Position numbers and translations under genes: made by a program
From: Negaprion brevirostris
Taxonomy: Eukaryota
Direction of reading: 5' to 3'
DNA length: 64,000 bases
Assembly: GCA_030324005.1 (NCBI GenBank)
Contig: JARDVH010000110.1
Location: 2,379,642 to 2,443,641 of the forward strand
Notes under the pieces: generated by a model
The model's database searches: none
The model's input: only the letters and a program-made list of their open reading frames with translations
Told to the model about the DNA's origin: nothing
Shown: in pieces, positions 9,321-47,438 of the stretch
Numbering within the stretch: position 1 is the stretch's first letter
Layout: every line of letters begins with the position of its first letter

Positions 9321-9393
9321 CGCCCGAACAGGGACTTGAACCCTGGACCCTCAGATTAAAAGCCTGATGCTCTACTGACTAAGCTACCCGGGC
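9321..9393 (-). tRNA. tRNA-Lys(TTT), full length, possibly impaired
   Basis: Reverse complement GCCCGGGTAGCTTAGTCAGTAGAGCATCAGGCTTTTAATCTGAGGGTCCAGGGTTCAAGTCCCTGTTCGGGCG (73 nt); 4 differences from the vertebrate consensus as I recall it, including D-loop G18>A; T4 terminator just downstream. Confidence 0.85.
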
Positions 9394-20030: not shown

Positions 20031-21417
20031 AAACTCTATCCATATATCTGGAATTGGTAGCAATTAAGCATTTCTCCAATATCTATTTTAAAGAGTATTT
20101 CTTTACAGCTGTATTTATTGCTGATTCTGATTTTCGGCTTCCTAGAGCGTCTGGTTTTAAAGCTCACAGGTAAAAAAAAAAATCTTCCAGTTTCCCCTGC
20201 TGAATCCAGCCACCTCGTGCTCCATGTGGGCATTGGTGTTCCTCTGAACAAATGCAGTTGGGACTGAGCTGCAGCATACATTCAAGCAGAACAGAGGATT
20301 AGGCAACCTAAATCTGCACGGGGTGTGGGACTGTAGTCAAAGTGCACCTGGCTGTATAACACGGCGAGAAATTGGGCAGAGGCTGAAGTGAGAAATTATG
20401 TAAAGATGGGGGAGAAAGGGGTATTGTGCCCTCCCAGCCCGATATTTCATACGAGACAACCAGCGTACCTAATACAGAGGGTATAAAATCCTTCCTTCAA
20501 TGCCGAGATGGTAATAAACGTGACCACTCCCTTCAACAAGAAGTGAATCCTGACAACAGGATGGCGGCGATGTTGTGCATGCTCATTCAGGTCTGGAATT
20601 GAGGAGCTGATCTTCGTCATGGTGGCCAAGAAATGATCTTCAATTTTGATTCAAGAGGAAAACTCCTTTTGGTGCGGGAATGTAATTTGTGGAACAAAAT
20701 CTGCCATCGTTACGCGGGCTGGCCTCCAAGTGACGACTGTTTGATGCACAGTGGGTATAAGTACTGGTTTCATTCGTGTATTGTTGGCTCATATCCGGCT
20801 AAACGTTTCCTATCCATGGACCCGGTAAAATGCTTTTTAAATGCTGTTCTCACGTTTCTGAATCGGCCTATGTAGGTGTGTTAATATTTAAGATAGAACC
20901 ATTAAAAAAAGGGAGTTGGGGAAGCCCTTCAACCCTTCGTGCCGACTCTGTCATTCTGTGGTAATAAATTCCACCAGCTTTAACTGTTGAACTTTTGTTT
21001 GTTTTGTATTCCACATTTGGTAAAAAAAAAGTGATGTTTAACATTTAGTTTGTTTTTTTAAAAGCAAAAGGAAACCTGTGATTTTTGTTAAGGGTAAATA
21101 CATTTGTTGTGAATTAAATAATTATCCTCTGTAGAATTCAATGGAGAAATTGGAAAAAAAAGGAGAACTTACACCACAATATGCCCCCATCGTTCACCTT
21201 CCTGTCACCTGTAAATCCTGCCTATCAACCTGATTCCTTCACCTTTCCTGAGTTGTCCAGTTATTCAGCCAGCTCCTCTGAAAGTATTGATTTCCCCCTC
21301 CTCTCCTGACTTTATTACTTAATCGATGCCCTCTCTAATTCCAATTATGCCTCCATCAGGTAAGATAATCTCCAGGCTGATGCTTAATTTCATTTATTTT
21401 ATTTCCCTTCCTTACAG

Positions 21418-22331
21418 TGAATGTAATCACAATTGTGGTTCTGAAGTGTAGAGATTGTGGTCTGTCCAAATGTATCACTTGTTACCTGGTGGCCATGTCA
21501 ACGGGCGATCTACTGGTCATTATCCTCGATCTGATATTGAGACACATTCCCATTTTCTTTGATAAATATTTTGTTTTCCTGCTTCCCATTCAAATGTGCA
21601 ATATCCATCCCTCCCTGCTTTATGCCGCCACTGACTGCTCTATCTGGTTCACCATCTCTTTCACCTTTGATCGTTTTGTGGCCATTTGCTGCCCGAAGCT
21701 GAAAATTAAATATTGCAGCGAGAAAACAGCGACTGTGGTTCTCGGAACGATAGCTTTACTGAGCTGTTTAAAGAACAGTTTCTGGTATTTTATGTTCACA
21801 GGTCAATATTGGCTGAAAAATATTCCCTGGTTTTGTGATGTCAGAGGGAATGTTGAGGAATCTCAATTCTGAGTAATAATCGAGTTCATCCACAACATTT
21901 TAAACCCGTGTACCCCATTTGTCCTGATTCTGCTTCTGAATATTTTCATCATTAGGCACATTGTAGTGGGCAGCAAGTCACACAAGAGACTCTGGGCTCA
22001 CAGCAATGTGGAAAGAACTAAAGATTCAGAGATGGAGAGTCAGAGGAAATCTGTCATTTTACTCCTTCTTATCTCAGCCAATTTCATCCTCTTATCTTCG
22101 CTGTCGATGCTTTATTCTATATGGAGCCGGATGGTTAATTTGGGTTATCGGTCCATACAGTTAAGTTGGGTTGTTCTGGAACGGGGTTACATGCTGCAGC
22201 TCCTAAGCTGCTGCACAAACACTGCAATTTATGTGGTGACACAAACTCAGTTTAGAAAACAATTGAAGAATATGCTGAAGCATTCCTTTACTCGAAATTT
22301 CAACTCACACTCTAATTTTACATGTACGTAA
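21418..22331 (+). pseudogene. GPR139-like class A GPCR, main coding exon with one in-frame stop
   Basis: Acceptor tttcccttccttacag; CGLSKCITCYLVAMSTGDLLV, TDCSIWFTISFTFDRFVAICC, PFVLILLLN, MLQLLSCCTNTAIY motifs; ORFs 21417-21872 and 21966-22331 share a frame and are separated only by TGA at 21870-21872. Confidence 0.88.
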
Positions 22332-45622: not shown

Positions 45623-45808
45623 ATTGTTCGGCCTTTTGGCTAAGATCAAGTGTAGTATCTATTATGCTGCACTTGGTTGAAGTCATGAGGTTACATTTCA
45701 GCTTCATTTGAAACAATTTTTTAAAGCAGCTTCTTGGCCTTTTGGCTAAGATGCAAATTAGATCAAGCCTTGGAGGAGGAGCTACACCTACTCCAATCAG
45801 CTTGGATC
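45623..45808 (+). mobile_element. U2 snRNA-headed retroposon, copy 1 (cut by a gap)
   Basis: 45628-45660 equals U2 nt 9-41; second U2 head (nt 4-27) at 45729-45752; colinear with 47114-47300. Confidence 0.8.
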
Positions 45809-45908
45809 NNNNNNNNNNNNNNNNNNNNNNNNNNNNNNNNNNNNNNNNNNNNNNNNNNNNNNNNNNNNNNNNNNNNNNNNNNNNNNNNNNNNNNNNNNNN
45901 NNNNNNNN

Positions 45909-45978
45909 ATTGAATGGCGGGGCAGGCTCGAAGGGCTGGATGGCCTACTCCTGCTCCTATTTCTTATGTTCTTATGTT
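45909..45978 (+). mobile_element. Young CR1 3' end
   Basis: attgaatggcggggcaggctcgaagggctggatggcctactcctgctcctatttcttatgttcttatgtt. Confidence 0.8.
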
Positions 45979-46819
45979 CACAATTATGCTTTACTCTGTC
46001 CTTGAGATAAACACTCTTCTCCCGAAACACTCCAAAATGGATCCAAATTCCCAAGGACTTGTTTCCCTTACTTTCCTTTCTCAGCCAGGTAACTCCAAAC
46101 CCCAGAACTGACTTTTATGGAGAGGGACAAATTAGAGATTCTTCTCTCTAGTCAAAGGTAGGTGAATCATCCAACCTCACTTAAACCCTCATGAAATCAG
46201 CATCTTCATTCTGAGCACAAACTCCCATCCACATTCTGTGTGGTGAACTTTGCTGCCTCTATCTCTTGGCTGTCTCTCACTTGAATTCTTCCAGATTGAC
46301 TCTGTGAGTTTCAATTATAATTTTGGGAAAACCTACCACAGAATCTTCTCAAAGTCCACCTCCATGGCAGTATGAATCACAGATCCAGATAGAAATGTTA
46401 CTTAGTTATCCTCTAAGCACGACAACTCCGTCCTATCTTGGAATTAAATAGGCAGACTAAAGTATAAGTGTTTGAAAGCTTAAGATTCCTAACACCTCCT
46501 TGGAACTTGGAGACTAACGGACTGTCTACCATCAGCACAGCCTCTCTGGTCATTGTTTAAACCTGTGAATGTCTTTCCTGTAAAACGACCTAGATCTCCC
46601 CATAACTCCCAAGCCAGCCAAGCTTGTTGTCAGCAGAATTCCAAATGGATAACATTCCCCCATTTTACCCCAAACTAAAACGCAATTCCAAAATAAAAAA
46701 AAACTTATAAAAGCATGCATTTAAAAAGATAAGAACATCAGAGACAGGAGCAGGCATAAATCATTTGGCCCTCGAACCTGCTCTGCCAGTCAATACGATC
46801 TGATGTGGCCGTATCTCTG

Positions 46820-47112
46820 GAAATACCCAATATTACAGATATCAGTCTTCAACCAAGTTGATTCACTGCGCGTGATAGCAAGCAATGGCTGAAGGCTTTG
46901 GATACTGCAAAGTAAGTGCTGCTTGATTCCTTCCAACACTTTACTGATGACCAAAAGTAGACTGATGGTGCAGTGTATTGTGTTTGTCGTGTTTTTTGTG
47001 TACAGGACACTTTAATGTATGAGCCCAGATGGCAAGATTAGTGCTCCGGAACTTGCTGCAGCCTTAGCCAAGCTGTTCCAGTACAACTACAACACCAGCA
47101 TCTATCCACTAA
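46820..47112 (+). mobile_element. Rearranged fragments of an old LINE ORF2
   Basis: SAPELAAALAKLFQYNYNTSIYP resembles the pre-RT CAPELA.PL..LFQ.S..TG..P motif. Confidence 0.65.
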
Positions 47113-47113
47113 A

Positions 47114-47438
47114 GCTTCTTGGCCTTTTGGCTAAGATCAAGTGTAGTATCGGCATGCTGTGTTTGATTGAAGTCATTAAGTTACATTTTAGCTTCATTTG
47201 AAGCAATCTTTTCAAATGGCATCTCAGCCTTTTGGCTAAGATGCAAATGAGATCAAGCCTTGCAGGAGGAGCTACACCTACTCCAATCAGCTTGGATTAT
47301 GTAGATCAAGCCCAAGACAGGAGGTGAGAGCCCTGTCTTGTCAGCTTGGATCGGGAATGTCCCAACTTGTTGGGTCTCTGAATTGGCTTTAATTTGTCTT
47401 GATTGGATTGGAAAAAAGTAACCAAACAAAAAAAAAAA
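47114..47438 (+). mobile_element. U2 snRNA-headed retroposon, copy 2 (complete, with poly(A))
   Basis: 47114-47150 equals U2 nt 4-40 (one C>T); second head at 47219-47242; hairpin-rich body; A-rich tail ending at 47438. Confidence 0.85.

Follow-up and report, generated by a model that had tools for sequence, protein, structure and literature searches.

A dispersed snRNA-headed retroposon family in the shark Negaprion brevirostris and its probable Tx1-type LINE partner

The genome of Negaprion brevirostris contains a dispersed, non-coding element of about 310 nt that is, with hardly any room for doubt, a retroposon family. The fuller account that we favour, with reasonable but clearly lesser confidence, is that the element consists of two U2 snRNA 5′ ends placed around a segment likely taken from U4 snRNA and followed by a likely U2-derived hairpin body, that it is likely mobilised in trans by a Tx1-type (Keno-like) LINE, and that its transcription likely depends on a captured snRNA promoter. 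The evidence is laid out below, beginning with two copies lying 1.5 kb apart in the stretch of DNA that was analysed (the window: 64,000 nt of contig JARDVH010000110.1, assembly GCA_030324005.1, positions 2,379,642 to 2,443,641, forward strand).

The window copies and the genome-wide family

The window has exactly four matches to a 16-nt U2 word, at 45631, 45737, 47122 and 47227, against a chance expectation of 0.02, and four matches were reached in none of 100 shuffles; these positions confirm the head-to-head spacing of 106 and 105 nt reported in an earlier, sequence-only reading of the same DNA. Rfam called U2 at both loci (56.5 and 45.9 bits), with good alignment limited to the 5′ ~40 nt. 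Only U2 nt 1–40 and 7–27 are matched in the element, which falls short of the full ~190-nt sequence of a U2 gene with its branch-site region, Sm site and 3′ stem-loops, and real U2 genes were located elsewhere in the genome, so the two copies are indeed not U2 genes. About 185 nt can be aligned between copies A and B and their 5′ flanks do not align, which upholds the claim of a shared architecture in unrelated surroundings as far as copy A can be followed: it begins at U2 nt ~9 (45628), corresponds over 45628–45808 to positions 9–188 of the family majority sequence at 95.6% identity, and then runs into a 100-N assembly gap (45809–45908) that hides its 3′ body and poly(A). Copy B is a nearly complete element whose fold beats 100 of 100 shuffles (z −3.1) and which ends A-rich; the structured, polyadenylated body proposed for both copies is thus visible in this one, its poly(A) signal mutated, while the end of copy A is out of sight. 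No target-site duplication was found in the flanks of copy B, and the element body at the window loci has no match to a ribozyme, a snoRNA or any other Rfam family at E ≤ 1. The features are as follows.

45628..45659, + strand: copy A outer head, U2 snRNA nt 9–40 (Rfam, U2 word, majority mapping at 95.6%)
45660..45728, + strand: copy A spacer, likely an eroded U4 5′ segment (z 2.2 against U4 for copy A itself; homology via family B and an old family-A copy)
45729..45752, + strand: copy A inner U2 head, U2 nt 4–27, stem-loop I (U2 word, majority mapping)
45761..45808, + strand: copy A first 48-nt hairpin module, then cut by the 100-N gap at 45809–45908 (majority mapping)
47114..47150, + strand: copy B outer head, U2 snRNA nt 4–40, ending 2 nt beyond the Keno/Utopia insertion site (Rfam, alignment; site from PMC4640811)
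47151..47218, + strand: copy B spacer, likely an eroded U4 5′ segment (homology via family B and an old family-A copy)
47219..47242, + strand: copy B inner U2 head, U2 nt 7–27, with stem I predicted to be 3 pairs longer (alignment, fold)
47251..47298, + strand: copy B hairpin module 1, with a fixed outer and a variable inner stem (alignment, fold)
47304..47352, + strand: copy B hairpin module 2, a tandem paralogue of module 1 (alignment, fold)
47336..47380, + strand: copy B likely eroded U2 nt ~44–87 (region of stems IIa and IIb), which partly coincides with module 2 (the match reaches significance in sister family B only)
47381..47438, + strand: copy B tail, with ~40 nt weakly like a Tx1 3′ UTR, a mutated poly(A) signal and an A-rich end (alignment)

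In the predicted fold of the family-A majority, the first half of the spacer pairs with the U2 branch-site region. Around the copies, we take 45909–45980, after the gap that follows copy A, to be a likely CR1/HE1-type tail and 47020–47113, upstream of copy B, to be a likely CR1-type reverse-transcriptase remnant. The window also holds a tRNA gene with a UUU anticodon (Lys) at 9321–9393 on the minus strand (Rfam, 63.5 bits) and, at 21381–22331 on the plus strand, a single-exon GPCR-like reading frame, of class A appearance by its motifs, with one in-frame stop near 21870.

When copy B was used as the query against the whole genome (2.69 Gb), 3,194 candidates of what we call family A were returned; all 40 loci that were scored cover nearly the whole query, 39 of them outside the window at 89–93%. 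A 31-nt word from the tail has 402 exact matches (reversed control, 0), and three copies or fragments were met in 60 stretches of 10 kb taken at even intervals (600 kb, of which 23% is N; reversed control, 0), which corresponds to about 13,000 copies (95% CI 2,800–39,000). The element is 309 nt long. In all 30 copies that were aligned the internal junctions are the same, and these copies start at or just after U2 nt 1 and finish with a poly(A) signal and an A tail; no single repeat common to their junctions was found. Target-site duplications scoring at least 9 are present in 5/30, compared with 0.3% of 870 mismatched flank pairs. A copy number in the thousands, constant junctions, poly(A) and the duplications seen in some copies together show that these are products of target-primed reverse transcription from one or few masters. 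The amplified master element that had been proposed from two copies is confirmed, as a dispersed family resembling the crocodilian SINEU elements. It could still be argued that the window copies, being so close together, are two chance U2 pseudogenes or a local duplication, since several other loci also hold neighbouring family-A copies; local duplication had been named beforehand as one of the outcomes that would overturn the sequence-only reading. We give this explanation practically no credence, as it is refuted by thousands of dispersed copies with identical junctions in unrelated flanks.

The 30 best copies differ on average by 3.1% from the column majority, a figure biased to good copies. 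When copies were instead anchored on the tail, 21 of 30 were interrupted by an assembly gap inside the element, and the assembled parts of these gap-broken copies carry 15 mismatches in 868 nt, compared with 93 in 1,942 nt for the other nine. From this lower divergence we infer that young, near-identical copies were collapsed in the assembly, the alternative cause of the gaps being hairpin-related sequencing dropout. As a lead on distribution, which is silent on expression, part of copy B is contained in 20 of 24 public sequencing-run rows. The share of its words found in a row stays below half throughout, at 0.21–0.34 in 15 rows (9 studies) and less in the other 5, with no RNA run among the rows listed.

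A sister family and the snRNA mosaic

A diverged match led to a second family, family B (1,445 candidates; loci L141–L165 were inspected, for example G000:C42:75,911,279-75,911,619), which is about 370 nt long and 11% diverged, and in which 8 of 25 copies have a target-site duplication score of at least 8, compared with 3.5% of mismatched pairs. Its composition became legible by direct alignment to the genome's own U1, U2 and U4 genes, taken as references from Rfam searches. Rfam applied to whole loci is too weak to see the mosaic: on whole family-B loci it gave U1 only faintly (E 0.68 and 0.78 in 2/9 loci) and did not find U4. The head of family B is U1 nt 13–96 (80%, z 21.6), part of which is deleted and to which a second stretch resembling U1 37–60 is added; its middle is U4 nt 23–47 (92%, z 6.9), its inner head is U2 nt 7–34 (96%), and its body consists of two 48-nt hairpin modules followed by U2 nt ~44–100 (z 5.4). 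Families A and B have their 3′ ~230 nt in common at 76% identity.

The outer head of family A is U2 1–40 at 100% identity to the genome's U2. The rest of family A is less transparent, and the young majority sequence alone has no match to U4 (z −0.8) or to downstream U2 (z 1.3). The spacer is nevertheless related to the U4 segment of family B (z 6.4), and in old family-A copies the relationship to U4 can be seen directly, at nt 3–82 in one (z 5.2) and at nt 21–50 in others (z 3.7 and 3.6). Because the U4 and body-U2 origins are linked through family B and these old copies, family A is likely to read U2(1–40) + eroded U4 + U2(7–31) + modules + eroded U2(44–87) + tail, an arrangement deduced from alignments. 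The ~70-nt "non-U2 spacer" of the earlier description is more than plain non-snRNA sequence, being homologous to the U4-derived segment of family B, although the spacers of the window copies themselves have no direct match to U4 (z 2.2 and −0.5). The 3′ body likely derives from U2 nt ~44–87, by way of the family B match, and the U2 3′ half beyond nt ~105 is absent, as had been stated. The middle likely taken from U4, the body likely derived from U2 and the sister family headed by U1 had all been missed.

A tree of the shared body (62 rows; copies that do not span the body or that hold N were excluded; midpoint root; bootstrap not settled) separates family B (25 rows) from family A (37 rows) at 100/100 and contains a young family-A group at 100/99; family B is the older of the two. 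Within the hairpin modules the outer stem is kept and the inner stem differs, with an inner hairpin of at least 6 pairs predicted in 88 of 90 distinct modules, and it is our guess that the modules are recognised by the LINE protein. The ends of the heads vary, falling at U2 40 and 31–34, at U4 ~47–72 and at U1 96.

Insertion sites and the probable LINE partner

For Utopia and Keno, PMC4640811 gives an insertion site after which U2 continues from nt 39. A genome-wide search for poly(A) followed by U2 nt 39 onward gave five matches (control, 0): two 3′ ends of a Tx1-type LINE (L081 and L084, in a ~490-nt U2 array), one full family-A copy, one A-run only, and one remnant at a gap that is not identifiable. 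The link to U2-targeting elements that had been guessed at from the heads has direct support, in that the LINE and family-A copies are both found at U2 nt 38/39. Insertions of the LINE in U2 occur at nt 38/39 and also at 36 and 43. It has matches to PF23058 (a ZCCHC3-like ORF1 domain), RVT_1 and zf-RVT, a fragment without a Pfam match is presumably its endonuclease judging by motifs, and its two named relatives are shark proteins at 61–65%. The assignment to the Tx1 type reflects the L1/Tx1 layout and sequence motifs, and should be taken as putative.

There are 1,798 candidates for this LINE genome-wide, mostly dispersed. Among 27 Tx1 ends, the sequence that comes next is U2 in three, U4 in one and a family-A copy in two; the other 21 are not followed by U2 39+, U4 or SINE, one of them lying inside a U2-array unit. 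The partner is therefore not strictly U2-specific, with three ends before U2 and one before U4. The U4 case lies in a U4 cluster, where a Tx1 3′ end splits a U4 gene copy into nt 1–55 and 39–141 with a ~15–17-nt duplication (G000:C163:95,863,773-95,864,368, L190); this insertion, at nt ~39–41, is nearly as far from +1 as the U2 site, and the two sites have the distance from the snRNA start in common and not the motif. An old family-A copy sits ~300 nt from this U4-inserted LINE on the opposite strand. In a tree of the 27 ends, four snRNA-gene-associated ends at different sites group at 100/98, and a fifth, from a U2 site, falls outside that group.

Several observations connect the LINE with family A. 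For two of 27 Tx1 ends to be followed directly by a family-A copy, the probability by chance, calculated with 19 ends and 20,000 copies, is of order 1e-6. Contig C9130 reads, in order, a family-A tail (98%), poly(A), a LINE fragment, poly(A), U2 43–186, array spacer and upstream region, U2 1–39, family-A nt 1–54 and the contig end; the contig, 2.2 kb long, breaks off after the first 54 nt of the element, and the U2 unit on it is decayed. The suggestion that the double head could record re-insertion into a U2 gene finds one actual case here, and an extra head with the same junction is present on one dispersed copy. Four family-A copies have a poly(A) signal before their own head, only one of these being the element's own tail joined at nt 39, and head-to-head junctions at nt 39/40 gave two matches. 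The tail itself is a weaker connection: in the recommended comparison of the 3′ end with LINE 3′ UTRs, ~40 nt are weakly similar to that of Tx1, the z of 3.7 with one Tx1 copy falling to 1.4 without the poly(A) signal and ranging from 0.1 to 3.8 over 27 copies. Most dispersed family-A copies have no U2-like target; among 63 family-A 3′ flanks a full U2 39–46 match is seen in one, a copy selected for it, and the only general bias is T at +2 (34/63 vs 30%). The dominant flank preference is "TT" for the SINE and "TC" for Tx1, and at the 8 U1 loci that were looked at, no U1 gene was found interrupted by an insertion. Taken as a whole, we regard a Tx1-type partner as probable.

At 10 of 18 U2 loci inspected (among L039–L050) the U2 gene has the same ~35-nt 3′ extension, several of these loci being duplication-flanked; they are likely retrocopies of unprocessed pre-U2 primed at one spot. 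A U2 variant forms a homogenised 492-nt tandem array (G000:C157:37,354,999-37,356,174, L036–L038) that is 84% identical to the other U2 gene type, and decayed array units elsewhere carry repeated LINE and SINE insertions. Three further U2 genes (L032, L033 and L034) carry a single additional A behind nt 30 and have diverged in their 3′ halves; two are on small contigs and one is beside a gap, and they possibly come from other organisms in the sample.

Transcription, rival explanations and the crocodilian parallel

Each of families A and B contains three runs of at least four T, and in neither was a Pol III box A found at up to one mismatch, the only look-alikes being of box B with two mismatches. 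As has been argued for SINEU (PMC4494074), T runs together with the lack of a box A make transcription by Pol III unlikely. U2 nt 1–4 is reached by 34 of 56 family-A 5′ ends (a sample biased to full length, 30 having been so chosen, with an extension rule that allowed one mismatch) and U1 nt 1–6 by 11 of 25 family-B ends, and no shared non-snRNA upstream sequence was found among the 22 family-A and 11 family-B ends that reach +1. Extra U2 heads are present on 3 of 22 full family-A 5′ ends, and a fourth bears an 8-nt U2 piece. A master placed behind an snRNA promoter would be expected to yield such copies, with sharp starts at snRNA +1 and no 5′ extension, and that placement is seen once, on C9130. 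The recommended look for a master locus turned up one partial, master-like locus: C9130 places a family-A head behind a U2-array upstream region, and no complete master, with intact promoter, head and full body, was found among the 9 and 5 matches to two U2 upstream regions.

The following cycle would account for these observations. A Tx1-type LINE cutting at U2 nt 38/39 and at U4 nt ~39–41 would supply its enzyme to family A in trans. A copy landing ~40 nt inside an snRNA gene would be transcribed by RNA polymerase II from the upstream promoter of that gene, starting at +1 and ending at its own poly(A) signal, and the 5′ piece of the host gene would become the new head of the element. Repeated landings would then convert U2 into U4+U2 and this into U2+U4+U2 (family A) or U1+U4+U2 (family B). 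Dispersed copies would lose the external promoter and be mostly dead on arrival. We lean slightly towards the view that promoters were captured at snRNA genes, as against an origin of the heads by template switching alone. A bolder form of the same idea, which we offer only tentatively, is that sharks carry a still-young U1/U2/U4 retroposon superfamily hopping between snRNA genes, in which a Keno-like LINE would cut ~38–39 nt past the snRNA start whatever the sequence, each landing would donate promoter and head, and the heads would record the order of landing; this reading, with its hopping and distance-based targeting, draws on one U4 insertion and one partial master-like locus.

Two other histories have to be weighed against promoter capture. 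The same family could have the same kind of partner and owe its heads to template switches in which the LINE reverse transcriptase jumped to abundant U1, U2 and U4 RNAs, with masters read from unrelated flanking promoters. Such switching is the model favoured for crocodilian SINEU, for SINEU-2 of which repeated independent 5′ additions are documented (PMC4494074), and the shark genome provides much that would fit it: snRNA retrocopies are common, the shared 3′ extension among U2 loci being one instance, 3′-truncated U1 and U4 copies are present, head ends vary, and the extra U2 piece of one copy ends near nt 25–28, away from the Keno site, at a join with 3-nt homology. Masters read from flanking promoters should however give shared 5′ extensions, as in SINEU-2A/B (PMC4494074), and none is seen among the family-A and family-B ends that reach +1; moreover, the element has been found inserted at exactly the Keno site, and its outer head extends only 2 nt beyond it. 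We consider this origin of the heads possible but doubtful. Alternatively, a U2-headed Tx1 LINE could have lost its interior and left the element as a non-autonomous derivative, whose front would be the LINE's own 5′ UTR. Contig C115 is what such a history might leave: there the other U2 upstream region, U2 1–40 and 8 nt from the start of the spacer run directly into 415 nt of Tx1 endonuclease region. A crocodilian LINE, Tx1-11_Crp, does have a U2 head (PMC4494074). The C115 fragment is without a LINE 3′ end, however, snRNA pieces account for the body, and the element body was not met at the 5′ end of any of the 19 Tx1 copies followed for up to ~9 kb upstream, none of which reaches a complete 5′ end; this explanation strikes us as quite improbable.

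The closest known system is SINEU. SINEU-1, -2 and -3 are U1- or U2-headed SINEs described only from crocodilians, none having been found outside them according to the sections of PMC4494074 (Kojima 2015) used here; there they are linked to Keno-related Tx1-Mar LINEs, and their transcription is left open, snRNA promoters being external. With SINEU, as far as those sections describe it, the shark families have in common a non-coding length below 500 nt, U1 or U2 heads, amplification from masters, recurrent 5′ addition of snRNA heads, poly(A), internal T runs without Pol III boxes, occasional duplications and a probable link to a Keno-related LINE of Tx1 type; family B resembles SINEU-2 (U1 then U2), and the inner body resembles SINEU-3 (U2 with an internal change). 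As for targets shared with the LINE, the U2 site is held in common with Tx1 and direct fusions are seen, a general target match being absent. The differences, on the same partial view of PMC4494074, are that the host belongs to another vertebrate class, that there are a U4-derived segment (not reported in those sections) and duplicated hairpin modules, that insertions here are in snRNA genes themselves whereas those of SINEU are in Mariner-N4, so that neither the crocodilian host nor the Mariner-N4_AMi preference applies, and that family A looks much younger than SINEU-1 and -3. We conclude that the element works like SINEU and is not placed in SINEU-1, -2 or -3; it is probably a parallel of independent origin.

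The LINE resembles Keno, as known from portions of PMC4494074 and PMC4640811, in inserting so that U2 resumes at nt 39; it differs in being mostly dispersed, with one insertion in a U4 copy, and family A, unlike Keno, encodes nothing. Utopia uses the same U2 site, and crocodilian Utopia families with weakened specificity are described in the part of PMC4640811 consulted, but Utopia has a C-terminal restriction-like endonuclease whereas the LINE here has the L1/Tx1 layout. Chimeric snRNA/LINE retrocopies and tailless snRNA retropseudogenes (as covered in the same sections of PMC4494074) likewise join an snRNA 5′ piece to a retrotransposed tail, and one-off copies of this kind also exist in the shark genome; the junctions of family A, in contrast, are fixed across thousands of copies, which is why a master must have been amplified. 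No report of snRNA-headed shark SINEs, of a U4-derived SINE segment or of Tx1 in U4 was found in the literature searched, most subscription journals and Repbase Reports lying outside its scope, and the portions of PMC5381603, PMC5499810 and bioRxiv 10.1101/2025.02.02.635956 that were available report no snRNA-headed shark SINEs; families A and B may be catalogued in Repbase or Dfam. The sequence-only reading as a whole is supported, with the U2 promoter as a conjectural driver of the master.

A practical warning is that heads of these elements swamp the annotation of U2 and U1 in shark genomes. With this finding snRNA-headed SINEs would reach into a second vertebrate class, and U4 would join their building blocks. 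Three things that were missing in crocodilians are available here, namely a young and abundant family, a LINE that sits within U2 and U4 genes, and a copy directly behind the upstream region of a U2 array, and this combination makes the promoter-capture model testable. If hopping between snRNA genes is true, it answers how SINEU elements are transcribed and suggests promoter-tethered targeting by LINEs.
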